NCBI GenBank assembly: GCA_050084515.1
Contig: CM114271.1
Coordinates: 31,558,001 to 31,622,000 of the forward strand
Length of the DNA stretch: 64,000 nt
DNA from: Blasia pusilla
Lineage: Eukaryota
Direction of reading: 5' to 3'
In this document: positions 1 through 60,000 of the stretch, piece after piece
Layout: every line of letters starts with the position of its first letter
Numbering within the stretch: position 1 is the stretch's first letter
The notes under the pieces: model-generated
What the model was told of the DNA's origin: nothing
Database searches by the model: none
Seen by the model: only the letters and a program-made list of their open reading frames with translations
Translations under genes and position numbers: made by a program

Positions 1-768
1 TGGCGGAGGTGTTAGATCTTGATGATCCAGATGTGTGGGTGCAAGCATGTTCTCAGAGGGCAGAAGTTTTTTGTAGAGTTATGCCTATGGCCTTTGAGAA
101 CTTAGCTATTGCCCAGCATAGAGATACATTGAGGTACGCGACCATAAGTGGAGGAGGTTATCGTCCAGGGATTAAGAGGTTTCATCCTGGAGATTACGTG
201 TATTTACAGCAAGCGGCACCCACGACGCTAGATGTCACTGCAGGGCGCACTATCCTACGTGTGCGCGAGGTATTATGGACCGGAGTCCTCATGTTGGAGG
301 GACGAGATGGTATGGTTTGGAAGGATCATGTGCGCAATTGTGCACCATGTCATCTTCCGAACGTAGATGGGACGGTGGATCCAAGCTTGGCAGTGGTACC
401 TGCAGGCTTGAGGTGTATGTTGTGCGGATCTGCGAGGGGTGCAGCCACCATGTTGGTATGTGATGGTTGTTCTCGAGGGTGGCATATGTCATGTCTGACC
501 CCCCCTCTTGATGTGGTTCCCACGGGACGATGGATGTGTCCGAGATGTGTATAGGGTAGTAGGTCATGTCAGAGAGATGTGATATTTTCTATCTGGAGTT
601 AGGGGGATCCACCTGCCAGCTAGGGGGGCGGTTGTGTGATCTCCATGTATATGTATGAGTTCATTTTTGTACATGTGTGGATCGACCTGTGTGTGGGGAA
701 GATCAGTGTTGTGTGGTGTAGATGTGACGAGCGATGTATGTTGTGTAGCGATATGTATGCGCACGACA
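1..768 (+). mobile_element. 3' end of a Ty3/Gypsy retrotransposon (family copy 1): integrase C-terminus with PHD, PPT, terminal segment A
   Basis: ORF 9-554 closely matches the integrase C-terminus at 25267-25800. PPT-like TAGGGGGGCG at 621-630. Segment 633-768 (TGTGTG...GCGCACGACA) ends like the reverse complement of 24333-24370. Confidence 0.92.
9..554 (+). CDS. Gypsy integrase C-terminal region with PHD finger (partial, cut by the window edge)
   Basis: C4-H-C3 PHD pattern CMLCGSARGAATMLVCDGCSRGWHMSCLTPPLDVVPTGRWMCPRC, preceded by a GPY/F-like tail (FHPGDYVYL...HVRNCAPC). Frame is open across the visible part. Confidence 0.9.
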   Translation: MLDLDDPDVWVQACSQRAEVFCRVMPMAFENLAIAQHRDTLRYATISGGGYRPGIKRFHPGDYVYLQQAAPTTLDVTAGRTILRVREVLWTGVLMLEGRDGMVWKDHVRNCAPCHLPNVDGTVDPSLAVVPAGLRCMLCGSARGAATMLVCDGCSRGWHMSCLTPPLDVVPTGRWMCPRCV

Positions 769-1266
769 CTCACAACACCATAGTTCTCACATGTGTGCAC
801 TCTCACATGTCTCTCTCAATGTCAAACCAAACCCACTCTCCTAATGAGAGGCTTGGGTTACACACACAAGGCAAGCAAGACCATAGCTCCGCCGCCTCAT
901 GCCAAGAGGTTCAACAAAGAGAGAATGAGCTCTCAAGCTCTCTCTCCTTGAGGTATACCCCTCCCCTCTCTCAAGCTCTCTCCATCGTAACCTATGCTCC
1001 CAAGTCACCTCCTTGGCTCTTGACATGATGTAGGAGGTCAAGGGACACTTACCAAAATTAGAAAGTTGATCATACACTTAAAATGATATTTATCTTAAAT
1101 AGTAAGTTCCTCTATATGGCTCCAAATGAGTCGAAACGAAGGGAAAACGTGCTCTCTCAAGTTTCCCGGGGCCTCAGTAGGTCATCCTCAACCTCCCGAG
1201 TCTGTCCTCCACTACTCACAAAGACGCTCTACAAGATCTCACCGATCTATCTTAAAAGACGTAACG
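769..1266 (-). mobile_element. LTR segment B of another family copy (copy 4), opposite orientation to copy 1
   Basis: Collinear with 24490-24959 and 34190-34669 (TGTCAAACCAAACCCACTCTCCTAATGAGAGG...GATCTATCTTAAAAGACGTAACG). It ends at the same position as the 34669 terminus. Confidence 0.88.
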
Positions 1267-3255
1267 GCTCATTCTCTCTTTGTTGAACCTCTTAGCATAA
1301 GGAGGCGGAGCTATGGTCCTCCTTGCCTTATGTGTGGAATCCAAGCCTCTCATTAAGAGAGTGGGTTTGGTTTGACACGAGAGAGAGTGCACACCATGGA
1401 GAGCTTGGTATGAGAGCTTGTTGGTGTTGATGAGAGATTCCACTGAGAAAATGAGTGAGTGAGAGAGCTTCAATGGAGGAGCTCGCTAGTCACTCGCTAT
1501 TGGTGCACGTTGGGGACCATGTTCCCCACTCAGCGGCTCAAGGGAGTGCTCATTGGAGCAAGAGCCGCTCGATCTTGCTGTTTTCATCGCCAATTTTTCG
1601 TGTGAGAGAGTGGCACGCGGAAGCGTTGCAAAAATTTGGTTGGCAATTGAGTATGGGGGCGGTTTTCCCCACGCTCTTGGGAGCACCTTGTAGCTTGGTG
1701 GTTGTTGTGTTTATAGGTTTGCAATTTCTGTTGGGAGAAATCAGGGCGGAAGCGCTGCCAAATTTCTTGTAGGATAGCAGATATATTAAAGGGCTCTACC
1801 ATACTCCTTGTCAATTTTTATTGGAAGGTCCGATTGAAAAGAAATTTTGGATGTTTTCGTAGATCGTAAAGCTGTGCAGTGCACGCTGTGCAATTTGGAG
1901 CTATGAGCAAAAAGTTATGACCAATTTTGCAAACTGCCAATTTTTAGGGTAAAAATTGTCAAACGCTATACCAGCTGTTGCCGTCACTGTCATCGCCGTC
2001 ATTGTTTCCGTCGCTGTCTACGATGACGCCATCGCTGTCCGTGCCATCGCTGTGTGCGTTGTTTGCCGCTGACATTTGGCGCCTCTGCCCCTCTTGTTGC
2101 TCTTGCTGCTGCTTGCCGCCACCGCCGCTTGTCGCCGTTGCCTCCACCAGTCGTCGCCGTTGACGTCAACACGAGATGTCACCGCCCGTCGCTGCCCTTG
2201 TCATCGTCGTTACCGTTGCTGTTGCCGCCGCCATTGTTTAAGACTACGTCCACCCGCCGAAACTGCTTAAGGCCAGGTAGGGCGCGGCTGCTGTACTTGG
2301 TGAGTCCATATGAGTCGTCGCCACTTGCTAACTCGCGACTTTGACAAGGTGACCTTTTTGGATTCATGGGATCGCAATTTCTTTTCCACTTTGCTATGTT
2401 GTGATTGGTAGCCGCTCGACAACGATTGAGTACCATGTCGTGGCGCTTGTAGCCGCAACACACCGCTGATTGCCGCACCGTCCCGCTCGTGGCCGCACCG
2501 CATCGTCTCGATCGCGGAGCCACTCCATCACTGGGGAGCAGATTGTGTTTCTTTGAATGAGGAGAGTATGCCGTTGAGTGCCGCACTGCATTCCCAAGAG
2601 ACGTGCCGTTTGTAGCCATTTTGTGCCACTAGAACCGCACTGTACTACAAGACCCGCACCGCACATCGTGGAGATTTGAGCATCGTCAATAACAGAGGAG
2701 TACGACTTGCTGGTTGGCTGGTCTTCACGACCGAGTTGGGGTCGAGATTTGCAGTTGCTGAGGAGCAACACAGAAATTTATTCAGGTTATCCATTCTGGT
2801 CTTTTTCCCTACACGTGTTAGGGATTTCGAGGTATTGGGTAGTTATTTGGGATATTGGGTTTTGTGCCGATGTTGAGAGCATCATTAATGTATGGGTTTA
2901 GGGGGCATAGACCTGTGTGGGATGTCCTGTTGATGAGATGATAGGATAGTAACCCAATGCCGCACCATGCCGCTTGTTGCCGCACAACATACGTCTAAGT
3001 GAGAGAGAGTGTAGATTGAGTGCTGCATGTTTAGTTTGAGTTGTTGAGTGATTACTTGCGAGATTGAGAGTGAATGTGTAAGAGGGGCACGAGGGTCATC
3101 ATGGACACCTCGCGAGATGGACGACCGGGGTAGAGGATCACGTAGGTTTTCGGTTTAGTTTTTCCAAAGTTTAGGAGTTGGTTTGACTCACATCGAGCCA
3201 GGAACTCCATAGAGTTTAACCCGTTTATAGCATGGAACGGAATGTTTAAGCTTCT
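1267..3255 (+). mobile_element. 5' part of a family copy (copy 3): partial LTR-B, long leader and deleted gag start
   Basis: Reverse-complement similarity to ~32110-34333, e.g. GCTCATTCTCTCTTTGTTGAACC, GCCGCTCGAC/TAACGATTGAGTACC, and the gag piece AGGAACTCCATAGAGTTTAACCCG. Confidence 0.88.
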
Positions 3256-23893: not shown

Positions 23894-24332
23894 ATAAAAA
23901 CCAATTTTCTTTCTAGTGTATACGGAATCATAGATAGTGTGCGATTGTGAGAAGTCTCAATTAAGATCGTGGTTGCAATTGCAAAACTAGTCACACTACA
24001 ATTGCACAATGTGCACTCACAAAGCATGGTCATAAGACAGCTTCAAATTTGAAATTTTGACTTTTAAGACACATGCAAGAAACAATAATCCCTTGTAATG
24101 GACGCAATGTATAATATTTTAAATTATACAAAGAGTCTCAAAGACCATTTGCATTGAAAGATTATTGTCTTTTCTTCATGTGTCTATTTATCTCCATTGA
24201 ATTTTTTATCTCAAATCTTTTATTAATTTCGACATTCCTTCTAATCTAACTGTTAGGAGAAATGGAGGAAATTTATATTATTCATCACATAAATTTCTCC
24301 CATTCCTCCTACTTGAATATTAACATAAGCAG

Positions 24333-25078
24333 TGTCGTGCGCATACACATCGTTACACAACGTACATCGCTGTCATCAAACACACACATAAACACACACG
24401 ATCCCATGTTAACTCATATGATCCATACATAGAGGCGAGAACTACCAAAATATCTCCAATAAAGTAAGATCCAATCTCTCTCTATACCATCTCACACCAT
24501 AGCTCTCAAAGGTGTGCACTCTCTCTCATGTCAAACCAAACCCACTCTCCTAATGAGAGGCTTGGGTTACACTCATAAGGCAAGGGACCATAGCTCCGCC
24601 GCCTCATGCTAAGAGGTTCAACAAAGAGAGAATGAGCTTTCAAGCTCTCTCTCCTTGAGGTATACCCCTCCCCTCTCCCAAGCTCTCTCCATGGTAACCT
24701 ATTCTCCCAAGTCACCTCCTTGGCTCTTTACCTTATGTAGGAGGTCAAGAGAAACTTGCCAAAAATAGAAAGTCAATCATGTACTCAAAATGGTACTTAC
24801 CTAAAATAGTAAGTTCCTCAATATGGCTCCAAATGAGCCGAAACGAAGAGGAAACGTGCTCTCTCAGGTTTCGCGGGGCCTCAACAGGTCATCCCCGACC
24901 TCCTCCATAACTCATGCAGACGTTCTGCTAGATCCCACCGATCTATCCTAATAGTCGTGCGGATACACATCGCTACACAACATGCATTTCTGTCATCGAA
25001 CACACACATGAACACACACGATCCCATGTTAACTCATGGGATCAATACACAGAGGCGAGAACTACCAAAATATCTCCA
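24333..25078 (-). repeat. 3' terminal repeat block A-B-A (complete LTR 25078-24460 followed by an extra A)
   Basis: The ~125-bp A copies at 24333-24458 and 24954-25078 are near-identical. The ~500-bp B matches 34154-34669. Confidence 0.93.
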
Positions 25079-25080
25079 AT

Positions 25081-25090
25081 CTCCCCCCTA
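25081..25090 (-). other. Polypurine tract
   Basis: TAGGGGGGAG on the minus strand, then AT, then TGGAGAT at the LTR start. Equivalent to 621-630 in copy 1. Confidence 0.85.
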
Positions 25091-25266
25091 GTTGGTGGTT
25101 AGGTCCCTCTAACTCCAGATAGCCATCTATCCCTACCTACCACGACATACATCTCTAGGACGCTAAGAGCAGAAAGGTCGGGTGCTCATGTGGCCCCATC
25201 GTTAGTCGCCTTCCTGTCATCCATGTCACAGAAAAAGTCGGAATCGAAACCTACCTAGTATCTCCT

Positions 25267-26420
25267 CTATGTACATTTGGGACACATCCATCGTTTCCGA
25301 GGAACCCTAGTGACAGATGGCGTCAGACATGCCATATGCCAACCTCTCGAACATCCATCACATACTAGCATCGTGGCCACACCACGAGCAAAACCACACA
25401 ACATACAACGCAAGCCTGCATGAACTACTGCTGAGCTCGGATCTACTATACCATCAATGTTAGGAAGGTGACATGGCGCACAATTACACAAATGGTCCTT
25501 CCATACCATACCATCGCATCCCTCCAGAAAGAGAACACCGGATGGAAAAACCTCACGCACTCTCAAGATAGTGCGCCCTGCAATCATATCCAACGTCGTC
25601 GGTGCCATCAACTGGAAGTAGATATAATCTCCTTGATGAAACCTCCGGATAGTTGGTCGATAACCACCACCCCGAATAGTCGCATACCTCAACGTATCTC
25701 GGTGTTGAGCAATCGCCAAGTTCTCGAACGCCATGGCATCACTCTCTGAAACAACTCAGCCCTTTGAGAACATGCTCGCATCCATACATCTGGGTCATCA
25801 AGGTCTAGCACCTCACTAGCATCTCGACAAATGGCCGCAGGTAAATCTGGCTCTTGGCCATAAAGTAGCAAGTACGGTGAAAAAGACGCTAAGGATGCCT
25901 GCCTGTTGAATCTATATCCTCTCGCCAGCCATGGCAACTGTAGGTCCCAACCTCCTAGGTGACCTCTCTATAAGCCATACTTGCGTAAACCCCTCTTCAC
26001 CGTCTGCACAACTCTCTCCGCTAATCCATCCAGCTTGGGATGATCTCGCAAAGTCGTGCGGTGGTCGATCAGCGCCTGATCACACAAGGCCTGGAACTCA
26101 CCGCAAAATTCGATACCCTGGTCTATCAACACCTCAGCCGATGCGCCATAATGACTCAGCACTCTGTCAAGGAAGGCATAAGCTACTCCCTCACTCGCTT
26201 TGTCAGGCAATGCAACCAACTCGATCCACTTCGAGAAGTGCTCGACCATCACCAACACATAACGACTGTGACGCTCCGTCAAAGGCAAAGGTTCTGCAAA
26301 ATCCAAACTCCATCTATACCCTAAGCATGCCTCGCCACCAATACTGAATCTGGAGCAAGTTGTACGTCCGCTTCACCCCAAAGTGACCCAACTCCTCGTG
26401 GGCATGTTGCACTAGTCATG
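25267..26420 (-). pseudogene. DDE integrase with C-terminal PHD finger
   Basis: HEELGHFGVKRT (HH; the CC half appears deleted), DFAEPLP, VMVEHFSKW, IDQGIEF, DGLAERVV. PHD: CMLCGF...VCDGCSRGWHMACL...WMCPKC. Confidence 0.93.
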
Positions 26421-26682
26421 CTCTTTGCAAAGGATGCGGCACTACGTGTACTCTACCATCCTCCCAAACCCTCAAAACATGTGTCCCCTCCCAACGGAAC
26501 CGTTTTGCCCGTTGTAGGATCCTATCCCGCTCTCTAGCACCCACGGTGCTGGCAACGCTAACAGTATAAAGGTACTCCAAGACTACTCCATCATCATGAA
26601 TATCTCGGCCACCTGTCGTCTCCTCACTTGCCTCGGGATCCAAGGACTCTACACTAGACCTCGCCATCGAAGTCTCCACACT

Positions 26683-28240
26683 CTAGCTCTCCATAGCCAA
26701 CATGCCTAAATAGGCTGACGCATGCCATTGTGGCATTGACTCCTCATCACTCTCTCCATGCCATCGAGCTCCAGTCGCATCTCGCTGACTCGGGCATGGG
26801 TTACGACTCAACCCATCTGCATCATGGTTGAGCATCCCAAGTCTATGTACCACTTGAAAATCATACTCTTGCAACAACAGAGCCCATCTCGCAAGCTTCC
26901 CTGTAAGCTTGTCGTACTCCATCAACCACTTCAATGGTTGATAATCAGTGATGATGGTAAAGGGGTTGCCGAATAAGTAACACTTGAAATGCGCGATAGC
27001 CCATACTGCAGCCAAGCACTCACCCTCATACGAGTTGTACTTCGCCTCTGAAGCGTTGTTTGAGCGGCTAACGTAAGCCACCACAAACTCTCTATTCTCA
27101 TCATCATGCTGGGTGAGCACCGTTCCAAGCCCCAACATGCTCCAATCTATGTGCAACTGGAAAGGACGCCCCCTGATCGGTCTCCTCAAGATGGGCGCGG
27201 ACGTCAACTTGTCCTTGAGCAATTGAAATGCTCACTCTTGCTCATCCCCCCTGTGCCACTCGTGATCCACCTTGGTCAGCAAGGTTAGCAGCTTTGCAAT
27301 CGAACTGAATCCCTTGACGTACCGCCGATAGAAGTTCGCCAATCCCACGAATGCGCGAACACGGCTCACATTTGTAGGGCGTGGAATGCGTGAGATAGCC
27401 TCTACCTTCGTCTGTTGAACACCAAGGCCCCCTGGGTATATTGTATGACCCAAGTACTCAATCTAGTCGTAGAAGAACTTGCACTTGCCTTGATGTAGCT
27501 TCAGCCCATGTAATTGCAATCGTCGAAACACCTCCTCTAGATGTCGCTCATGCTCCTCAGTCGTGGCGCTAAAAACTATAATGGCATCAATATAACACCT
27601 AGCAAAATCCATAGCAGCCAAGATCCTATCCATGACGCTCTGAAACTCAGCCTGGGCGGTCTTTAACCCAAATGGTAAGAACAGCCACTGGTACAAACAA
27701 TCCTTCCCGTGAGGATCGATGCTCCAAAATGCCGTCTTCTACGTGTCCTCCAATCTGATAGGCAGTTGGTGGTATCCGGCTCGCAAATCCAATGAACTGA
27801 AGACCTTTGCAAGACCAATTGCATCAAATATCTCCTCAAGGGTGGCCATGGCATACCTATCGGACTTCGTGTGCCGATTGATAGATCGGTAATCCCCACA
27901 CATCCGCCTATCCGTCCAGTTGCCATGCACATCCTTCTTGGCGGGCTTGACAGTGGCAGATGCATACTCCCCATGCAACATCTCCACTAGTCCTGCTCCA
28001 ACTAAGTCATGGCTCCTTCTCTGAATCAGAGCCCTCTCCATATCACTGTACCTGTAGGGTCGTCGTAAGATCGGCGTATCACTCAACAACTCAATGCGGA
28101 TCCCCGATCCCTTCAGCGTACCCAAATCCTCCATGCTAAACCCAAAGCAGCTCCTATAAATCTTGAGGAACTGATGTATTCGGCGCCGCTCTCCTCCTGT
28201 CAACTTAGGGACCATATTTGGCTCCCAAGTCTCCATCGTG
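26683..28240 (-). pseudogene. Reverse transcriptase and RNase H
   Basis: RMCGDYRSIN, FSSLDLRAGYHQL, PFGLKTA, YIDAIIVF (YxDD mutated), KCKFF, VRAFVGLANFYRRYV. RNase H: HIDWS, YEGECLAAVW, TDYQPL, DADGLSR. Confidence 0.96.
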
Positions 28241-28569
28241 ACTACTGTAGGACTCTCCGGCGCGGATATCGATGGTTGCTATGGTGCAACCCCGTCTCAA
28301 ACAACAACACTCGACCGCTCTCCTAGAGCCAACTGCAAACTATGATTTCTTCCACATGCAGTGCCCGGAACCATGCTCAATGTTGTGGCTATCATCTCCT
28401 GGCCTACCTGCAAAACATCCCAAGAAGTCCAAGGATGTCTCTCCCAATCTCCCTTGGTGTGTCAATCTCCTCGGCTCTCGCCCCCAGCCACTCGGTAGGC
28501 ATGGGGATCACCAACGCAACCGCTCTAATCTGTCGCGATCTCATCTGACGCTACTCAGCCACTCCCAAG

Positions 28570-29500
28570 CTGAAGATCCATATCAAGCAGTTCAGGTCCA
28601 TTTCCTGACCCAACACATGGCGTCGTGATGCCTCTAATACTGAGGGTACCGCCGTCACTCATGTGGGAAATCCCATTGCCCGCTCTCTCTTGTCGGCGTT
28701 GGGCTCCACCAACCTCTAAACCTTTGTACCTGGTCATCCTTGTATGCATAGGAAGCGGGAAAACTCACAAACATGGGAAAGGCTGCCCGCGGCTTGCCTA
28801 CCCTGTAGACCACAGTCAACGGTGGTCGATCATCGTGCCTCACTGCCTGTGAGCGACGACTTGGATCCAGAATGGAATCCACTAACAAATGGGAGGGGCG
28901 CTCCACTCTTGCATACGCCCTCCGTAACATCGCATGGGGCACCAAGTTGGTCCACCATAGACGCGGGCGATGGGCTCTAGAATCTACACTCGCCGCATCC
29001 AAGAACATTACAGGGCTGATCCATGCACGCACCTGATGAGCACTTGTCACCACCCGTGACCTGGAGTCTCCTAAGATCAGTACATTCTCCAGAATGTAGG
29101 CTGGAGAACGAGAATAGTGCTCCTGCAATTGCCGTAAGACCCTCAACATCTCCCAAAATAACCTGGACCGAGTGTCAGCCAACCCGCTGCCTCGTCCAGC
29201 ACTTGATTGGCCTTGACATGGCTAATCGAAAATGACCAAATCAATGGTGCCTAACCGGTCTAAGTCCTGCACCCCCAACAACAAAATATCCCTCGGTAGG
29301 GAACTCTGGTACCCCTGTACCGCGGACGCAGAAAATAAGTCGGGAAAATATAGGCGTAAGTGCGCCACATGTCGTAGTGAGACGCACCTCGTAACATCAT
29401 CACTCTCCACATACAGGTACTGCTGCACTCGCACCCCAACTTGCAAAACAACAGCTAACCCAGTGCTAATCCCTCCAAAGAGATCTAACACTCGAATACC
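28570..29500 (-). pseudogene. DNMT3-like C5-cytosine DNA methyltransferase domain inside pol
   Basis: Motif I IRVLDLFGG; motif II YVESD; motif IV IDLVIFD*PCQG (catalytic Cys codon 29216-29218); motif VI YILENV; motif VIII DAASVDSRAHRPRLWWTN; motifs IX/X RERAMGFP...RRHVLGQEMD. Confidence 0.93.
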
Positions 29501-29869
29501 CTCCTCTGGGATACACCACACAATGGATGTGGTATCCAAGGGTGTTATCGTAGCACTCCCTGCTACCTCGGGTTCCTCAGATCCGTCACGCTCTGTGCAA
29601 ACGCCTTGCTCCACGCGGTCTACACGTGCTCATGTGCCAATCGTCGAAGCTCCTCAATCGAGCTCCTCAGTCGAGCCCCACAACGACACCTCTCCTCCAC
29701 GGAATGATGCGCTACCATAACACTCCTCTCCATAGAAATGTCAGGAACGGGAGTATCCTCTGCATGGACATGTCCCTCAATCAAATCACTAGGCCAAGTG
29801 ATGGCAATGCTAAATGCTACTAAGGTCGCCACCTCTCCTGGCCGTCGCTCGATCACTACACCTGTGAAT

Positions 29870-30260
29870 CAAACTGGTAATGAGCTAAGGCGCCTATCAC
29901 CTGACTGCCATCCAGGTCTGTAGGACGCTGACTCCTCCCAGTAATCCAAGGAAAACCCCATCGGGTATAACACTGCTCCACCAACCAAGACATCGTAGGA
30001 CTCTGCATGAGTCACTATTGCATTGGCTCGCACCACGGACTCATTTGTAGGATGTCCCGGACAAATCCTTACCACGACCTCCTTTCGGGTGATATACTAT
30101 GTGGTACTCGCTCCACCAAGGATGTCTGTATCCAGAATGGACAACGCTCCACATCGGCTCTCGTCAAGCCCAATCCTCTGAATGACGCTTTCCCCAACAT
30201 CAGGGGTTGTGCTCCTAAATCCAACAAGACGCGCTGCGGACTAAAATATCTACCTCGGGA
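29870..30260 (-). pseudogene. Retropepsin-type aspartic protease
   Basis: Manual translation gives PQRVLLDLGAQPLMLG (D-S/T-G-A box with S>L; Asp codon 30219-30221) and a downstream YDVLVGG box. Confidence 0.8.
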
Positions 30261-30699
30261 CTCACCAACTGGAAGACCGCTCCTTGGTTATCCAGCAACA
30301 CAACACCAGGAGAAGCCATGGCACGCTCTATCCCGGGTCTATCGAGCATCTCCGCCATCCTAGCAGCCGCAGCCTGCCATGAATCTGACATGGACGGCCC
30401 GAGTATCCGCTCCAAGGGCAAGTCCATCACCTCCTCTACAATCACCTCTGAACGTGATGAAGGAACTCAAACTCCGCGCTCACATAGTGAAGCGGCCAGC
30501 CGAAAAGCCTCGGTGGGCGTACCCCCCAACGTCATAACATCGGAAGCAGAAAATAAAAGAGTGCGGTACACAACGGTGGCCGCCCCCAACAACGTGCTTG
30601 ACACATGCCCCTCCTGAGCATCAATAATAGGAATCATCGCACTCACTTCTCCCATTGCCCTCCGTGCCTGCACACCAACAACATCACCAACTCTCCAAG

Positions 30700-32485
30700 A
30701 ACTCATCAGGACCCATCGATGGGGTCCTCATCGCCTCGGACAACGTGAAAGACTGAGGAAGCCTAGTCTGTTTCCTCGCTCCCCCTCGCTGTGGATCCAA
30801 CTCTACGGCTGCTCCACGCGTCACAACTGTGGCTGCCTCCATTTGGGCAACCCCGCACATCCAACCAGGATCCTCTTGATCTCTCGCTGCTCCATATGAT
30901 GTCGCTGCTACGGATCCGGCATCGGGTAACCTCAATGCCATAACGGCAATTTGCTCTTGTAGCTGCTGTATCTGAGCAGCCATCCCAGCCTAACGTCCGG
31001 CGTCTCCCTCGGCGCGTCTAGGTGGTGGTACTCTACCTCCTCCATGGGCAGCTTCACCACCGTGTCGGGAAACTCTAGTTCCTCGTCCCCCAACGGCACC
31101 ACCTAGTGCACGATCTCTAGGCCCACCTGGACCGGATACTCGCTCTGGTGCCCTCTCTGGCCCTCGGTCCGGACGTAACTCAGGATGTAAACTTAAACAT
31201 CTGGTGTGTGTATGACCATACCTCTAACAATAGTCACATTGATAACCTCCTAGTGCATGTATGACCATACCTCTAACAATAGTCACATTGATAACCTCCT
31301 GGTGCAGCACCATCTCCTCCTCCATGCTGAAGCACACGTCCATGACCCTAACGAGTGCAATCGCGCTGATGATGGGCTCCACCACATGACCAACAAGTAA
31401 TAGTAGGCGGCTGCTACTGGGCCGCATATGAAGGCACAGGTCTCTGTGGCACGGCCCCTTGGTATCCTCCCTGAGCTCGTGGTGCCACAGTCAACCTATC
31501 TCGAAGTCCACGTTGCTGCACAGGTAGTGCAGGCAATCGTGACTGCTCTCGTCCAGAACCCATGACGGCTACGCTCTCCTCCTCCATGTTGCGCTCAATG
31601 TTCTTGGAGGTCCTTAAAACATCTCTCAACATAGGGGAGGTGTTCATAAGAAGCACCTCTCCCATACCCGTGTCCGCAACGTCCAATCCAGCATCGCGTA
31701 CCATGATTGGATAGCCTGAGCCTCTATCACCCCCTGAGTGACGTTGATCAACCGGCACAAGCGAGTGTAAGCCTCACGCAAACTCTCACCCGGGCGCCTC
31801 TGGAAGTCGTGGATGCTCCGCAACTTCTCCGTCTGTACCCCCTGGTAGCTCGCCCTCAACTGAGCAAAGAACTCAACCACAGGGTTGAACTTGGGACAAA
31901 CCCGACTAGACGGTGCAACTGCTCCCGTGCGAGTGACCCCTCCTAAAATGTCACTACTGGAAGAGGAAGTAGCCTCTCTTGACTCCTCCTCCTCATCTGG
32001 GAACTGCTCTGTCCATGACACATAATGTGGGTCATAGTAGAGCCTCCACGCCTCGATCTCACTTGCATATCTCTGAGAGAACTCATGGTAATCGTCCATG
32101 GGCGCCCCATCTAAATGCTGGAACATACCGTTCCATGCTGTAACGGGTTTAACTCTCTAGAGTTCCTGGCCCGCTGGGAGTCGCACCAACTCCTAAACTC
32201 TGCTATGAAATCGTGCAACTCAATCGTGCCTACTGCACTTGAAAACCTACGCGGTCCTCTAACTCGGTCGTCCATCTCGTGCGCCCAACTGGTAGGACCA
32301 CTCACAATGTGTGGCAATATGCTCACAAACTCCTCTACACGCTCCCCCTCGTCTCAAGACGACACAGAAGGAGATCGAGGTGGTCTCTCACGTGGAGACC
32401 CTCTAAACCTCACACCACTCCGGGTAAACCCTCCAGAGCTACTCTCACGTCCACTACCTCGCCTCTCAAAATCCTGAAAGGACAT
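30700..32485 (-). pseudogene. gag with two zinc knuckles
   Basis: ATG at 32485. Capsid-like FQRRPGESLREAYTRL. Knuckles CWSCGGAHHQRDC (~31355-31395) and CDYC*RYGHTHTRC (~31198-31240). Confidence 0.85.
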
Positions 32486-34153
32486 CGTGATGGCCCTCGT
32501 GCCCCTCTCACACGATCACTCTCAACCTCACGAGTAATCACTCAATCACTCATCCCAAACATGCCGCACTCGATCTACACTCTCCCTCCCCGAGACGTGT
32601 AATGTGCGGCAACAAGCGGCGTGGTGCGGCAAATCGACCAGGCTATCATCTCATCGAAAACCTACCCTCAACTCCAGACATTCCACACAAGTCTATGTCC
32701 CCTAAACCACTTACATGAATGATGCTCTCAGCATCCACACAACCCAATATCCCCAAATAAACTACCCAAATCCCAGAATCCCTCCCGTGTGCAGGGTAAA
32801 GGACCAGAATGGGTAACCTGAAGACATGTCGATGTCGCTCCTCAACAACTGCAAATCACAACCCCAACTCGGTTGTGGAGACAACTCCTCCAATCAGCAA
32901 GTCATACTCCTCCCATACTGACGCTGCTCAAAACTCCTCGATAGACAGTGCGGTTCTAATGGAACGGTGCGGCGTTGCAGGCGACACGGAACAGCTACAA
33001 ACGGCACGGCCCTCGATGGTGGGATGCAGCACTCGGCGGCATACCCTCCCCAATCAACAATAAACCCACACTCTGCTCCACAATGACGGTGCGGCTCCGC
33101 GATCGAGACGGTGCGGTGCGGCCACCAACGGTAAGACGCGGCAATTGGCGGCGTGTTGCGGCTACGGGCATCACGGCACGGTACTCAATCGTCATCGAGC
33201 GGCTACCAATCACAACATAGCAGCATGAAATCAAAACTCAAACACCATAACCAGAGGTCATCTGCCATCACTGGTTGACGATGAAACTTCGATGACGGTG
33301 GCGGCCAAAACAAAGTACGTGGTGGCAACACAAGTCAGAGAATCAACGAACGTCGTGGAAGACCCTCCACTCCGTAATGGCGGCAATGGCAACCAAAGGG
33401 TGGACAACAGCCGAATGCGGCTCTGAGCAACATTGGGCAACAACACCGGCCGACGGTGGCCAGTGGACGGTGATGGTTGCCCATTGATGGTGACGACGGA
33501 CCACTAATGGTGACGGTTGACCATTGATGGTGACGGTTGACCGTTGACTGGTGAAGGTGACTATGACGGCATCAGCTGCCACCGGCGTGGCGGCTGGTTT
33601 AGGGTTTGAACAATTTAACCCTAAAAATCGCCTAACACTGGCAGTTTTTCAAGATTGATCATAACTTTTTATTCGCAACTCCAAATTTAGCTTTATTTGT
33701 TGCACAACCTGCACAGCTTCACGATCTACGACAACTTCAATCAATATTTGGAATTGGACATTCCAGTAAAATTTGACGGGGAATGTCGTGAAGCCCAATG
33801 TCTCTTGCTCCTACACAAAATTTGGCAACGCTTCCGCGCTGATTTCTCCCAAAAAAATGTAAAACCTGTAAAAATACAAATCAGCAAGCTACATGGTGCT
33901 CTCGAGAGCACCGGCATGGGGCAACCCGCCCCCATAATCAATCCCTATCAGAAATTGGGCAACGCTTCCGCGCGCCACTCTTCCACACGAAAAATCGGCA
34001 AATGCAAAGAACAATCAAAGCAGCCCTTGCTCCGGTGAGCACTCCCATGAGCCGCTGAACGGGGAACACGGTCCCCAACTTGCAAAAACAGCGAGTGACC
34101 AGCGAGCTCCCCCATGAAGCTCTCTCACTCTCTCATTCTCTCATTTCTCTCTT

Positions 34154-34669
34154 TGTAAAGTAAGATCCAATCTCTCTCTACACCATCTCACACGATAGCT
34201 CTCAAAAGTGTGCATTCTCTCTCATGTCAAACCAAACCCACTCTCCTAATGAGAGGCTTGGGTTACACTCATAAGGCAAGGGACCATAGCTCCGCCGCCT
34301 CATGCTAAGAGGTTCAACAAAGAGAGAATGAGCTTTCAAGCTCTCTCTCCTTGAGGTATACCCCTCCCCTCTCCCAAGCTCTCTCCATGGTAACCTATTC
34401 TCCCAAGTCATCTCCTTGGCTCTTTGCCTGATATATGAGGTCAAGGACCACTTACCAAAATTAGAAATTCAATCATATATTCAAAATGGTACTTACCTAA
34501 AATAGTAAGTTCCTCAATATGGCTCCAAATGAGCCGAAACGAAGGGGAAACCTGCTCTCTCAGGTTTTGCGGGGCCTCAACAGGTCATCCTCGAGCTCCT
34601 GGGCCTGTCCTCCACTACTCGTGCAGACGTTCTGCTAGATCCCACCAATCTATCCTAACAGTCATGACA
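34154..34669 (-). repeat. 5' terminal repeat (segment B only; starts TGTCATGAC, ends TTTACA)
   Basis: High identity to 24460-24959. Segment A is absent upstream of it. Confidence 0.93.
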
Positions 34670-34770
34670 ATAGATACAGGTCACACAAAACAATCACAAA
34701 GTACATGCAAAACACTTGCACAAGGCACACTCACAAATCATGACTAATTGGTGCCCAACTTTCAAGTTTA

Positions 34771-34820
34771 TGACCCATATTACTTGCAAAGTAATATTAC
34801 TTGCAAAGTAATATGGGTCA
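34771..34820. repeat. 50-bp near-perfect palindrome with an internal tandem duplication
   Basis: TGACCCATATTACTTGCAAAGTAATATTACTTGCAAAGTAATATGGGTCA. Confidence 0.9.
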
Positions 34821-37800
34821 AAAAGGGTCCCAAAAAGTAGTAGGGAAATTACGATAAAATCTAATAGTGGTTCTCAAATAATGAATAAGTCTCCAAATTT
34901 CTAAAATTTCTAGAGTCCGTCTGTCCCCCCCACCAATAGAGAACTTAGCAAGGACTAGATCTCGCCATCCCAAATTTTGAAAAGTGTTATTTGCAAGTGT
35001 CACGAGGTTTTTATAGGGGCATGTAGATGCGTTATTGTAGATTGCCATGCGTGAACTATTTTGTAGTCATTGGGGCTCTATAGAGCCACACTAGAATGAC
35101 AAACGAACTTAAAGTTGTAGTATCCAGCATTTTGACGATGGCTTAAATGGTCGTTGAGTTGATCAAACCCAATTAAACTTTTAAAAGAACTTTTTTAATC
35201 TTGCGAGAAAGTAAAGTCACGTCAAAGCCACGCAGGAAGGTTCTTATCACTTTGGACAGAAGTCTTTAAGTTTCTTTTCTTTAGAATTCCAACGTAAATG
35301 CTACGACGATGATTCCCATAAAATAAACTTCTCTTCATACAATCCAAATATCAGTTAAATTTTTTCCTCAAATAGAAACTTTAACGTAGATCCATCCGTG
35401 CCGAGCAACGAAGGTGAATGCTTTGAACCCTCCATCATGTCTTTTTTGCTGTGACATGTTTCAATAGTCTTCTCCAGAACTTTTGGTTTGGATTCTTGGA
35501 ATAACAGTATTGTGTCTACGCTTTTAACACCGAGCGTACGTACCCATAAAATCTGGCAGATGTGAGGTGATCTAGGGTTGATATACTGTTACTGTATATG
35601 ATTAATGAAAAGTTCCTCAAGCAGACCGATTTGAAGAGTGTGTTGGTACGGGAAAAGTGACACAAGAAATAAAAGAAAAAAGAGTGGAAAGGCTATGCCA
35701 AAAGTGCAGAAACGAGTCACTGGAAAGGAATCTTGACAGATTTTCTATCCCACCCCTACGCGTAAAGAGGAATACAGGAATAAAGGAGGATGCGGGTTTT
35801 GGAAGCCAGACCGCTGGCAGTGCACCATTACAGGAGTGGTGCGATGATGAGGACCGAAAGACATGGAAAGGCAAAATTTTTAACTGTTGGAACGCAACAA
35901 AGATCTGTAGGTGTTTATCCCAACAGCCCTTCCTCTTCGATTTTCGATATCAGATCTAACTTGATTTCCTCTGCCAAACTTTGGAGAAAGATGCTGCTGC
36001 AGGAAAAAGCAGGAGCCCGAAGTTCAACAATTCTTGTGTGCTTCAGCGTGTTATTGAAAAGTGGCGCAAGGTTCAACAATTGCAATTTACACTGCTGCCA
36101 TGTGGAAGGTTACATATAGATCTGTGGGCCCGCCGCGCGCGTGCCAAGATTTGTCTTTTTGAGTCGCTCGATCTATATCGGAGATTGGCTTCATGGATTG
36201 ATGGGCATTATCAAGCATCAAGCGATAGATGAGAAAGGAAATGTCCACTGTATCATCTGAATATATATGCATAAAATTTCTGGCATTGAATTGGCTAGCG
36301 CTACAACAATAGGGAGGTGGAGGAGGGTGCAGATGTGGTCACTCACACATATCGTTGCTGTGGATAGATAAGCATACGCAGAATGGAACTGAACCGCTGG
36401 CCCTAGGGCCTGCAACGTTTATTGCTTCCTTGGGATTGGATGGAGGGGGAGCTTTTGGGCGCGAGTGAGTCAGTTCACGGAACAGATCCGGTCGCTTCGG
36501 CAGATGGTCTCTATTTGTTAGTAGCTAGCCGATGAACAGGAAATCTGATCAGGATGCGTGTACCCCATAGTATGAGACTTCGGTATGGTACCAAACCTTT
36601 CCATCTTGTCTATCGCTAGGTCAGTCAGTAAGCTCGAATCTTCATCCCTTTCGAATCTTACGCAGGCAACCAAGCCAGTAACTGGTCGCATTTACATATA
36701 TACCTGGAGGGAGCCTCTCTCAGAAACCCAGAGGACGCCAAGTCGCCATCAGAGAACATTCCCGGTCTTTGTAACTATCAACGTAGTCCTGGTCCAAAAT
36801 CGTAGATATGCAATCGGATTGAGGCTGCGACAGCGCCCTTTTTTCTCAATCCAATTCTGGGCTATTTAGCTTTACATCCCAGTAACCTTTGCCGTTTGGC
36901 ACCGACTACACAGACTGGTACGATTGATTTGTTGTTAACTTTCAACTCCTGGAAATGACCCTTTTGTCGGCATGCCTAGATTGCCTTCAGTTGGCATATA
37001 TCTAGGTTCCTGCCCAAGTCTGGCTAGCAGCCTTCCAGCACGCTCGGGTAGAAATTAAAGGTGTGCATGTATGGGGAGGCCCGGCGTACAGTAAGAACAA
37101 CACTTGACGAACAGGACCGCTTTTACGCGGTACAAAAAACCGACGGCCTTTCAACTTCTAGGCTTAGAAAGTTGTCTACAGAGTCTACACAAAGGTGGCA
37201 GGCAAGCTTGGAACTTTTCAAAATCGCTCTCTAATGTGCATGGTTACGTATAAACGTACGGAGAAATGTGTCTCCTCTGCATCTACAAGGTTGGAGTCCG
37301 TTGGACACGCCGCGACATTGTGTCGTACGCTATGGATGTATATGTACATGAGTGTTGGCCCTTTCACGTCCATTCGATCCCAATAACCGCACAGGGCACG
37401 ATAGCTCGTAACCTTCCACGCCTCTGCAATGAGCACTGTAGTTCCTCTGATTAGCTGGTAGGCCGTCCTTGGAAACCTCCCGTGTACCTCAGAAATCTTT
37501 CGGCAGCGGGTCCCCGCCATGGCAGTGCTAATAATCGACCACTAGTCACCTGAAATCGTCGGTTGGAATTGAACTTCCTAGCTCCTTTGACAACTTACGT
37601 AGATGCCCACCCCCACCGACCTCTACCAGGACCTGCGATTCTGACTCGGAGCGATTAAACTCTTGGATATAGCTCTTCAGAGTACCTGCCATGGGTTTTA
37701 ATTATTGGCAGGAGGCGAGCTATACAGTGAGTGCATCGGTGGATGAATCTCATTCGAGCAATCCTCGTTGGTGGAAATCGCAAGGACGTCTAACTAGGTT

Positions 37801-57549: not shown

Positions 57550-60000
57550 ATGTCGATCTAAATTACATGATAAATTAAATATGTAGAGGCTTTTTCCATG
57601 GCGAAGAAATTGAGAGCTCGAGAAACTTTTCATAATGGATGATGATGGCTTGACTAAGTCATAAGAGCCAAGAGTTATGAGAGATGTACCATCCATCCCT
57701 CATCATGTCCTTCAGGATGTTAGAGGGAGAGTTGATCATACACATAGAGTTGGATTCAAGGAGAACAAGGATGACTCTATATCAAAGGATTCTATATTTA
57801 AGGTGGATCAAATAAATGATGATGATGGCATGGACGATTTTATTCAAGACCATTTTGATATTGGTAATGGAGATGGAGATACGGTTAGATGAGGAGACAC
57901 CCATTTCATTATGTCTATCCATTCGTACCACTTTGTTATCAATATTATTATTCAAGAGTGCCTTAAATTTTCAAACACCTCTTTTTTTTACATATATCCT
58001 TCTCAACAAGTAGCATCATTCGCCCTCTTGACCAATAGGATTGCTCGAAATTTACTTAAGAGATTAAATAATTCAAATATATAGTACTGATGGTTAATTC
58101 AAAATCAACCATCATTTTTAATCCCTTCCATCCAACTAATCTCCCACTATGCTCTTGCTAAACTTGCAAGAGTAGTATTCACTCACTAAATTAATATATT
58201 CATGGATACATTGTTTTGACTCCTATATGATCAAATCCTCATAGAGAGGAATACAACACCACATTCTAGAACATTAGCTTGGCAAGTTCTCTAAAGTAGA
58301 CTTTGATGTAAGACGTGCATGTATTTGTGATTAGTATCAAATCAAGATAAGTATGCTATATTGAGATCTCATCCATCTTGCGAGAAAATGCAATAGTGGT
58401 AGAATATGAGGGGAGTGTTTTATGGAAGAATCTCCGGTGTTTTCCAGTTATTTCATATATACTTTGTATGTATCAATGTCCTTCCCTCCCTAAGTTGATG
58501 GTGTGGCATGCCATCCATTAGTCCATAGATGGATTTATGTGTCTCGTACTAGATTCACCAACATATTGGCACATAGAGAGTATATTTCTTGGCTTGGAAA
58601 GAGGATCCATGGCAGATTTGGTTTTGACTAGTAACAGATGGAATTTCACCGTACTAGATAACATATAAATCTTTCTCAAGATTTTGGATGAATAGAATAT
58701 TCAACAATTTTTTTCTAAAACTTCCTCAATATTCAATCTTGATTTTTTGTTGGACATCTCGTCATTGACATGTCACCTCTTTATAGTATGTTTTTAATTA
58801 TGAGGAAACCAAAACTCAAATCTTCCATGATTTTTCCCACAAATTCTCGAAATTTCCTCGTGAAATATTTTATTCAATTTTTTTTGCTAAATCTTTAATT
58901 TTCTTGATTTGGCTGATGATGTTTGTGAAATATAACATTGTGCCATGAATTGAAGAGTGGTCTCTTTGATATTTGGCCCTTATCATTCCAGGTGTATTAT
59001 TTACATTAGTTCAACTTCATTCCCCCATCTAGTTGTTCTCAATAATCAATGCGTTTACTCGATTCAAGGATAATATCCACCCTAGATATCAAGATTGTGG
59101 GGCTTACTTGGAGCCCATAGTTAAAGAGTAGGTATTAGTATAAGAGGAAGTTTGCACATTTGATTAGAGTTACATTTTGATGATCCTATAGACCTACCTC
59201 CATAGGGTAAGAATTGCTAGTGGTACAAAAAATCTCTTTCAAACCAATCTTTCCCCCAAAATATGATCTTCTCTCAATCTTCCACTATGAGAGGAAGTTG
59301 TTATTTATAAGAATGGATATGTAACATATTGAAGATCTTAGCATTCCCAATTTCATGAAATATCTCTTTAGAAGTAGGCTAGACATAACATACCAATCTA
59401 ATCTCATCCATCTGTTGATAGGATAGTAAGCTTCACATATCTTTTTATCCATCCAATTTCCATATCTACATATTCTTTTCATAGAGGAGAGTAATGAATT
59501 GAAGGAACATGTGAGCGACCCTTTGTTAAGTTGTTTGGTGGAGAAACTTTTGGTGATTTCAATCAAGAGTAGATATTTGTAGGTAAAGAGATGCAATGAT
59601 TTCATAAACCAATAGGGTAGGATAGTTAAAGACTTTAAGTATGTTATAATTTTTGTCTATTTCCTAATTATAGATCAATATTTTTGATTCCTCAACCTTC
59701 TACAGATGTACCTTGGGAGGAAAATAATCTTGCATCATCTTTTTAATTGGTGGGCTCACACTAGTATGGAAACGCATTGGAATCTCATGAGAAAGACATG
59801 AGATGTAGAAATAAGAAATAAGCCTAAAGGAACATTTTGAATTATCAGGGTTATGCCCTAGAAGAGCATGACCAAACATATGGTGGAACTTGAAAAGAGC
59901 TTAAGAAGTAAACTAAAACCTAGTTTGGCATCAAATTGAGCATTGCCGTCCACATTTGAGGTCATCGTGACTGTAGGAAATATATATTTGGGAACCATGG
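57550..60000 (+). pseudogene. Highly decayed CACTA transposase remnant
   Basis: MDDFIQDHFD, ETPISLCLSIRTTLLSILL and MYQCPSLPKLMVWHA..S.DG.M..DS (58467-58560) parallel the 14400-14800 region. Confidence 0.6.

Follow-up and report, generated by a model that had tools for sequence, protein, structure and literature searches.

Integrated copies of a methyltransferase-bearing Ty3/gypsy-type retrotransposon begin and end at a palindrome inside the long terminal repeat

Introduction

How does a long terminal repeat (LTR) retrotransposon that carries a DDE integrase come to lie in a chromosome with its LTRs split and rotated? The element that raises this question occupies positions 24333..34669, on the minus strand, of a 64,000-nucleotide stretch of Blasia pusilla DNA (assembly GCA_050084515.1, contig CM114271.1, positions 31,558,001 to 31,622,000 of the forward strand), to which we refer in its whole length as the window. 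In the textbook account, LTR retrotransposons and retroviruses enter the genome as linear DNA by way of the outer LTR ends, and the circles that contain one or two LTRs (1-LTR and 2-LTR circles) are deemed by-products. An original prediction, made from the letters of the window, divided the LTR of this element into two parts, A and B, read the integrated copy as B-body-A-B-A with a polypurine tract (PPT) before the first A, and proposed that the family may integrate from a circular intermediate opened inside the unique 3′ region of the LTR (U3). Our analysis assigns the window element, a dead copy, to a very abundant Ty3/gypsy-type lineage with a C5 methyltransferase and a PHD finger in pol, and leads us to consider it probable that the integrase of this lineage opens LTR-circle complementary DNA (cDNA) at a palindrome internal to the LTR.

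Results

A repeat search, BLAST and reading of the sequence agree on the layout originally described, placing B1, body, PPT, A1, B2 and A2 in that order on the minus strand. B1 (34156..34669) forms the 5′ end of the integrated copy, starts with TG at 34669/34668 and corresponds to the 3′ part of U3 together with the repeat and unique 5′ regions (R-U5) of the replicative LTR, and A1 (24954..25080) corresponds to the 5′ part of U3. B2 (24461..24959) and A2 (24333..24460) follow, the latter forming the 3′ end of the integrated copy and closing with CA at 24334/24333, so that the termini read 5′-TGTCATGAC... and ...GCACGACA-3′. By repeat search and BLAST, B1 (34666-34156) and B2 (24959-24460) are 92.2% identical over 511 gapped columns, and A1 (25080-24954) and A2 (24460-24334) are 90.6% identical over 127 nucleotides (nt); because the repeat copies stand 8-9% apart, the layout did not arise by assembler collapse or duplication of identical repeats. 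The B2-to-A2 join (24455..24467, minus strand) sets the end of U5 against the start of U3, as expected for an LTR-LTR junction in a 2-LTR circle, and equivalent joins occur in the relatives described below, in which B and A were labeled X and Y (B1, A1, B2 and A2 thus being X1, Y1, X2 and Y2). The original prediction also saw a normal-looking A-B LTR after the PPT. Both parts are indeed there (A1 at 25080-24954 and B2 at 24959-24461), although the A1-to-B2 join of the window copy is not intact, about 12 nt having been lost between two CACGAC repeats.

The place at which the LTR is split was located from other copies of the family. We mapped one raw whole-genome shotgun run (X16) and three sets of run contigs onto positions 24100-34900 at 85% likeness, and the joints and read piles given here are the best-supported ones among those listed. 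The family is very abundant, with a depth of about 2000-2500 over the reverse transcriptase and integrase from about 1/100 of run X16. Reads of other copies link the A end to the B start, as 34669>24333 (39+39 reads), 34670>24333 (12+19) and 34658>24333 (15+18), with GT (42), GC (31) or C (31) as the plus-strand letters between the joined ends, and contigs of two of the run sets, named X2 and X3 (not the repeat blocks), contain the matching join 24959>24333. In element orientation, the family LTR thus runs ...GCACGACA, 2 nt, TGTCAYGAC..., passing from the A end to the B start through CACGACA-NN-TGTCAYGAC. By these joins, the last base of A2 and the first base of B1 flank a single point in the family LTR. 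A quasi-palindrome is centered there, CACGACA / TGTCATG, with 6/7 positions complementary, from which B opens with TG and A closes with CA; the ...CAYGACA-NN-TGTCAYG... sequence lies inside U3, about 115-140 nt from the start of the LTR. Comparison of the window sequence with the read joints of other copies marks 24954..24959 (minus strand) as the collapsed remnant of the internal CA-NN-TG palindrome. We discarded a reading in which the A2 end and the B1 start share 6 bp (CACGAC / CATGAC), since the A1-B2 join is deleted and the read joints place the ends adjacent to one another. At 24333 itself, 1563 reads leave the A end into mixed sequence with an agreement of 0.4, compared with 0.81-0.94 for the other five piles listed for X16; a low-agreement pile is the pattern that an element terminus gives.

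The window holds a second copy of the family at 1-3246, which has 76-86% nucleotide identity and is arranged as three pieces head to head. The first (3..768, plus strand, by sequence comparison) comprises the integrase C-terminus and PHD finger, the PPT, and an A′ that ends ...GCGCACGACA at 768. The second, by BLAST, is an inverted B (769..1266, minus strand) that starts with CGTTACG, equivalent to TGTCACG, at 1266 and is cut at 769, about 33 nt before its 3′ end. The third (1267..3246, plus strand), also by BLAST, joins a B that lacks everything before the predicted R start (about position 336) to the 5′ part of the body. Family sequence therefore stops at one and the same LTR point four times in the window (34669, 24333, 768 and 1266) and never at the A start or the B end. 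The first piece has a body-PPT-A end with no B-A after it.

The same region offers a further observation, in that another B adjoins the TG end of the inverted B (1266) and begins there precisely at its predicted transcript start (1267). Nested insertion accounts for the arrangement at 1-3246, but not for the coincidence with the R start, and a snap-back product of self-priming is a possible alternative; inverted LTR pieces are likewise present in one related locus, L059 (12263-13039). The join in L059 had been a candidate for a circle junction filled with the primer-binding site and PPT, which we rejected because this copy is rearranged and contains inverted pieces, and the join is not used as evidence.

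Whether the split point is where copies in general begin and end was examined in a related family from metagenome contigs. Scanning these with an alignment of the methyltransferase domain gave 80 loci with 44-65% amino-acid identity; 32 loci of at least 8 kb were compared with themselves by BLAST, the repeats of one locus were compared by BLAST with all 80, and duplicates were removed by identical flanks. Among 24 distinct B starts, 19 abut unrelated flank, all at TG, and the other five follow an A end and exactly 2 nt, all five lying 3′ of the methyltransferase. The distinct A ends mirror this, with 17 of 22 abutting flank at CA and five running on into B via the 2-nt spacer. The A copies that end at flank are preceded by the PPT in 10 cases (B-body-A) and by a B end in four (B-body-A-B-A); L059 is rearranged, and L052 and L077 are unclear. 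The longer form is complete in L007 and L032, is seen as A-B-A in L027 and L028, and extends as B...A-B up to the locus end in L010, so that four copies are complete at the 3′ side, one is cut by the locus end and one is rearranged. These are the two forms, B-body-A and B-body-A-B-A, that the original prediction had anticipated (10 and 4 complete, plus 1 cut), together with few canonical AB-body-AB copies; none of the 19 distinct 5′ ends among the 80 loci carries a canonical A-B LTR, and none carries B-A-B. Solo B-A units were absent from the 80 loci, a set in which they are under-sampled because it was chosen through the methyltransferase. A conserved 25-nt stretch of B from the window gave no matches in the metagenome scan.

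Target-site duplications occur at the same point. Eight elements have both ends within one locus, and seven of these have a perfect 4-bp direct repeat directly outside the TG and the CA (L007 TCTC, L008 TACA, L032 AAGG, L050 TGTG, L056 TGTT, L059 CACA and L063 TTCA), for which the chance of a match is 1 in 256 per element. Integrated copies thus begin at the internal TG and end at the internal CA, with 4-bp duplications there in the relatives, and ends at these positions make each integrated copy a circularly permuted form of the cDNA. Terminal TG and CA, short inverted repeats at the ends and a 4-bp duplication characterize insertion by DDE integrases rather than by tyrosine recombinases. In L007 and L032 the duplication brackets the whole B-body-A-B-A, indicating that the unit was inserted as one piece, and integrated copies accordingly include a join of LTR end to LTR start. 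This B2-to-A2 join consists of the U5 end, 0-1 nt and the U3 start in L027, L028 and L032 (one base each) and in the window, and it contains a 21-nt filler in L007.

The signals for reverse transcription point to an LTR with its usual limits. The window PPT, aggggggag (25081..25089, minus strand), lies directly before A1, and relatives have a tract of the same type, AGGGGGGCGAG; AGGGGGG(C/T)GAG directly precedes A1 at 14 of 15 body-to-A1 boundaries, with L077 as the exception. By eye, there is no tRNA-type TGG primer site at the B1/body boundary. Directly after U5, we predict a self-priming primer-binding site, CAAAGAGAGAA (34145..34155, minus strand), on the basis of its exact complement: the 11 nt after B1 are complementary over all 11 nt to TTCTCTCTTTG (34318..34328, minus strand), a putative self-primer 173 nt before the B1 end that would mark the start of R, and the self-primer motif is repeated in B2 at 24632-24622. 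Similarly, the first nucleotides after B are exactly complementary to a site 169-177 nt before the B end over 16 nt in L032, 11 nt in the window, 11 nt in L056 and 9 nt in L010. L063 has a 10-nt complementary run elsewhere in B, 86 nt before its end, and four of the nine cases tried (L007, L008, L047 and L050) have no exact complementary run of at least 8 nt. The sequences that pair are not the same in the window family and the metagenome family, and their relative position is constant, which reads as covariation, and the predicted design is that of Tf1-type self-priming. The conserved PPT and the covarying self-priming site thereby indicate that reverse transcription still yields an A-B LTR.

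Self-priming also bears on the B-to-A join, which the original prediction took to lack the terminal CA of U5. This part of the description must be revised: the self-priming site fixes the end of U5 at the end of B, and the CA after B1 therefore belongs to the start of the primer site and is not missing from the B2-to-A2 join. Because U5 ends ...CTTTA, the join is a precise abutment of the U5 end and the U3 start, and its likeness to a 2-LTR circle junction stands.

The coding body identifies the lineage and the enzyme available to it. All features lie on the minus strand, and the Pol order of reverse transcriptase, RNase H and integrase is that of Ty3/gypsy elements (Metaviridae). The reverse transcriptase (27466..28278) is matched by PF00078 (RVT_1) on 27466-27738 (E 1.5e-15), its N-terminal piece (27742-28278) being assigned by position only; the Ty3/gypsy-type RNase H (26686..27231) by PF17917 (E 2.9e-33) and PF17919 (E 6.2e-28); and the DDE integrase core with its C-terminal part (25692..26372) by PF00665 (rve) on 25971-26372 (E 4.8e-13). 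In the alignment, the catalytic D, D and E are all present in the window integrase, and among relatives the first D is kept in 30/30, the second in 21/28 and the E in 22/28, with changes of the G>A type. The window integrase is without the zinc-binding H2C2 part, and Integrase_H2C2 accompanies the rve domain in relatives. In this region (26324-26434, minus strand), reads of other copies diverge from the window copy, with loose ends of 898, 1956 and 921 reads (agreement 0.87-0.94) and joints that skip 86-87 nt. A PHD finger (25273..25407; PF00628, E 1.3e-09) forms the C-terminus of the integrase open reading frame (ORF), in the place of a chromodomain, for which the window ORFs gave no match. 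As originally noted, no tyrosine recombinase is visible, and none (Phage_integrase, PF00589-type) was found among 141 six-frame ORFs of at least 45 amino acids at E up to 0.1 in this degraded copy.

A C5 cytosine DNA methyltransferase in two broken frames (28658..29629; PF00145 on 28658-29221, E 2.6e-07) lies upstream of the reverse transcriptase, between it and the protease region. This piece has 23 database homologues at 40-65% identity with E down to 9e-60; those named come from the liverworts Marchantia and Calypogeia and the moss Sphagnum, the closest named being liverworts, and the homologues scanned carry the methylase domain. A gag-like region in broken frames (31417..32353) is assigned by its position upstream of pol and by a weak Retrotrans_gag match, below the Pfam cut-off, in homologue P0017; in the window, 31417..32353 itself has no Pfam match. 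The longest open frame of the window copy is 188 amino acids, and the copy is thus dead.

Several smaller features complete the picture of the locus. The gag-pol spacer of the window copy contains a 49-bp tandem duplication (31194-31291), and 84+52 reads of other copies skip one unit, which indicates that the unit is single in most copies. The 5′ flank of the element holds a 58-nt inverted repeat (34767-34824) that is 86% complementary, and a second short inverted repeat lies at about 24240-24310 in its 3′ flank; these may be small foldback repeats or repeats resembling miniature inverted-repeat transposable elements. Farther away, a weak reverse transcriptase-like match at 59336-59464 on the minus strand (35% over 43 amino acids) hints at a further retroelement, unrelated to the first, close to the window's end.

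Discussion

The permuted anatomy of the integrated copies raises the question of how an integrase could come to act inside the LTR. In the mechanism that we favor, reverse transcription would make an ordinary A-B LTR, the start of A being set by the PPT and the end of B by the Tf1-like self-priming site, and the ends that the integrase uses would lie at the quasi-palindrome within U3 rather than at the outer LTR ends. The integrase would cut this palindrome in cDNA whose LTR ends are joined. Cutting 3′ of each CA across the 2-nt spacer would leave recessed CA-OH ends and 2-nt 5′ overhangs, as in normal 3′ processing, and insertion of the TG and CA ends by the integrase would follow. A 2-LTR circle opened in this way would give B-body-A-B-A, as at the window locus. 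B-body-A might come from a 1-LTR circle, from linear cDNA cut in both LTRs or from a subsequent A1/A2 deletion, three routes that are indistinguishable here. Under the standard model of retrotransposon transcription, only B-body-A-B-A would keep R-U5 at the 5′ side and a whole LTR downstream, and only this form would therefore yield RNA with terminal redundancy and serve as a master copy. From the LTR-end/LTR-start join within integrated copies, we infer that the pre-integration DNA held such a join, which is the structure of a 2-LTR circle. The original proposal of integration from a circular intermediate opened inside U3 is thus supported by permuted ends with duplications in 7/8 complete relatives, and the circle itself is our deduction from them.

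Several observations weigh against this mechanism. The case for a circle comes from the anatomy of integrated copies, and the census of termini describes a related family in metagenome contigs rather than the genome of the window. Every copy examined is old and broken (ORFs in eight relatives reach 344 amino acids at most), and 7/28 relatives have N at the second catalytic D. One relative, L047, has no duplication (ATCA vs AACC). The window copy also has no intact target-site duplication: its 4-nt flanks, CTAT (34673-34670) and CTGC (24332-24329), match at 2/4 positions, and longer or shifted flank repeats were, by eye, unconvincing. Both differences are transitions, the dominant change in the family, and the mismatch is compatible with decay of an old duplication, of which it is no proof. 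A more specific difficulty is that, if a circle were cut at one or the other of its two identical sites, both permutations would be expected. The extra LTR is instead found only at the 3′ side, in 5/15 PPT-A ends vs 0/19 5′ ends (one-sided Fisher p about 0.011), which does not fit. Possible reasons for this bias are a faster loss of B-A-B through its longer B repeats, some means of distinguishing the two palindromes, or a route that is templated, as in DIRS elements. Finally, the join is precise in 4/5 copies, and a templated origin fits this as well as blunt ligation does.

The last two points are the ones best served by a mechanism that dispenses with internal cleavage. Reverse transcription might template a linear B-body-A-B-A cDNA by way of the A-to-B junction and terminal redundancy, as proposed for DIRS and PAT elements, leaving the integrase to insert its natural TG and CA ends. 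A directional process suits an extra LTR confined to the 3′ side, as it does the precision of the B2-to-A2 join, and the layout agrees with that of DIRS and PAT elements. Nevertheless, the PPT before A1 and the self-priming site after B1 predict cDNA ends at the A start and the B end, the TG and CA ends show no priming site, the filler in L007 resembles an end-joining product, and the 10 B-body-A copies would need a second explanation. On balance, we regard a templated linear cDNA as unlikely. These B-body-A copies, which outnumber the longer form in the relatives and have a counterpart in the body-PPT-A end at position 768 of the window, could alternatively be the basic mobile unit, produced without circles by cutting linear two-LTR cDNA at the palindrome in each LTR, with B-body-A-B-A copies as rare by-products. 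On the standard model, however, such a unit gives no terminally redundant RNA and cannot sustain the family, and the duplications around the whole of B-body-A-B-A in L007 and L032 require an LTR-LTR join before integration. As B-body-A can also be derived later by A1/A2 deletion, we think it quite improbable that the shorter form is the mobile unit.

Two further explanations would remove the integrase or the family from consideration, and both have become barely tenable. A tyrosine recombinase, supplied in trans or lost from the window copy, would account for repeats laid out as described for DIRS elements and for a window copy without an intact duplication. This idea is close to refuted by the 4-bp duplications and TG...CA ends in 7/8 complete relatives, by the presence of an rve integrase with its D,D,E triad mostly kept, and by the failure of all 141 ORFs to match the Phage_integrase family. 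Alternatively, the locus could be a one-off product of local rearrangement, of nested insertion and recombination, or of assembly error in a canonical family. In favor of this, the window copy is without a clean duplication, the extreme abundance of the family makes recombination between copies likely, and the neighboring copy at 1-3246 is visibly rearranged. At the level of the family, however, this explanation is refuted: the layout, palindrome, PPT and join recur in independent insertions of a related family, the second window copy breaks at the same nucleotide, the repeat copies of the window element differ by 8-9%, and the layout is in print for Klebsormidium nitens (PMC5890265).

If integrase cleavage of joined cDNA at the internal palindrome is accepted, a stronger proposal can be considered, namely that LTR circles are obligatory integration intermediates and that the integrase behaves like a site-specific endonuclease whose target, a palindromic attachment site, has been relocated from the LTR ends to U3. 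We put this forward only tentatively and think it somewhat doubtful. Were circles obligatory, the old circle-junction model of retroviral integration would be realized in nature, in parallel to the circle junctions of IS3 and IS30, and an extra LTR restricted to the 3′ side would imply some distinction between the two palindromes of a 2-LTR circle, identical though they are. We speculate that the CpG methyltransferase of the element or its PHD finger might distinguish them, as the palindrome arm CACG holds a CpG.

Regardless of whether circles are obligatory, the integrated copies examined are without exception rotated forms of the cDNA, with integrase-type duplications at an internal palindrome, in a lineage that abounds in bryophyte-type genomes. 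The lineage offers a natural system for testing whether a DDE integrase can make productive use of circular cDNA, and it explains the emergence of DIRS-like repeats where no tyrosine recombinase is involved. It also links the permuted design to elements with their own DNA methyltransferase and chromatin-reader domain. Standard LTR-finding software would mis-annotate or miss such families, the commoner B-body-A form having no terminal repeats at all.

Comparison with other systems places the lineage between several that are better known. Elements of the DIRS, PAT and Ngaro groups encode a tyrosine recombinase and make no target-site duplication. The window element shares with them split direct repeats (A1-body-B1-A2-B2), with half a repeat at the 5′ end and a half and a whole at the 3′ end, as well as an internal junction that corresponds to joined termini and implies a circular intermediate; unlike them, it has an rve integrase and no recombinase was found, and its relatives have TG...CA ends and 4-bp duplications. 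The original comparison with TOC1- and PAT-like elements had no match in the literature searched. A bacterial parallel serves as a lead only: insertion sequences of the IS3, IS30 and IS256 types integrate from a circle with abutted inverted repeats, and share with the proposed mechanism a DDE enzyme and a circle on which the junction brings two ends within a few base pairs. These are DNA transposons, however, which involve no reverse transcription and form the junction on excision. Relative to the Metaviridae, the lineage has a PPT at the start of U3, a primer-binding site at the end of U5, TG...CA ends and, in the relatives, a 4-bp duplication, within the 4-6 bp usual for that group. In place of two complete terminal LTRs with the duplication outside them, it has B-body-A-B-A, with duplications that flank the TG of B and the CA of A.

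The chemistry that we propose has precedent in retroviruses, in that foamy-virus integrase (PMC1180852) and HIV-1 integrase (PMC1905944) are each described as cutting a palindromic 2-LTR junction. Common to these reactions and to the one proposed for the window lineage are a DDE integrase, an internal CA...TG palindrome and the conversion of a circle to a linear form with processed ends. The palindrome of retroviruses is the junction of the outer LTR ends and the provirus is unpermuted, whereas in the window lineage the palindrome lies in U3 with a 2-nt spacer and copies are rotated. Priming has a parallel in the Tf1/Sushi elements and in the Tcn1 clade, which is present in mosses and club-mosses and for which Tf1-type self-priming has been predicted (Neumann et al. 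2019, PMC6317226). Compared by features only, as far as these are given in that source, the shared ones are the absence of a tRNA-type primer site and a sequence after U5 that is complementary to a site in the LTR; Tf1/Sushi and Tcn1 elements have a chromodomain and canonical LTRs, in contrast to the PHD finger, methyltransferase and permuted ends of the window element.

Among the papers listed by our searches for split direct repeats in integrase-bearing LTR retrotransposons, all, by title, concern recombinase elements or are general reviews and methods; the searches found no liverwort or Marchantia literature on a permuted layout and nothing relevant for Chlamyvir with PHD. The closest described element is KnitGypsy-Dnmt3 of K. 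nitens, a Gypsy element with Dnmt3 in Pol (de Mendoza et al. 2018, Nat Commun 9:1341, PMC5890265), whose repeats, according to the legend of Fig. 4c, are arranged as in a DIRS retrotransposon (A-coding-B-A-B) with Gypsy domains; a 2026 preprint mentions 'streptophytes (Gypsy-DNMT3)' in passing, and the literature searched under either element name yielded nothing further. The original prediction recognized the DIRS-like arrangement, which is present in the window and its relatives, without this precedent. KnitGypsy-Dnmt3 and the window element have in common a Gypsy domain composition, a cytosine methyltransferase within Pol and DIRS-like repeats, a likeness by description only that does not imply the Dnmt3 subclass or common descent. 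The former comes from a charophyte alga, and section 9 and the legends of PMC5890265 do not give its termini, palindrome, duplications, priming sites or mechanism; the latter has a PHD finger, is very abundant and has its closest named protein relatives in liverworts. The layout is therefore in print for one alga, and what appears to be new, as far as the literature was searched, is an abundant family with liverwort-like relatives, an internal palindromic attachment site, duplications at the permuted ends, two integrated forms and a self-priming site.

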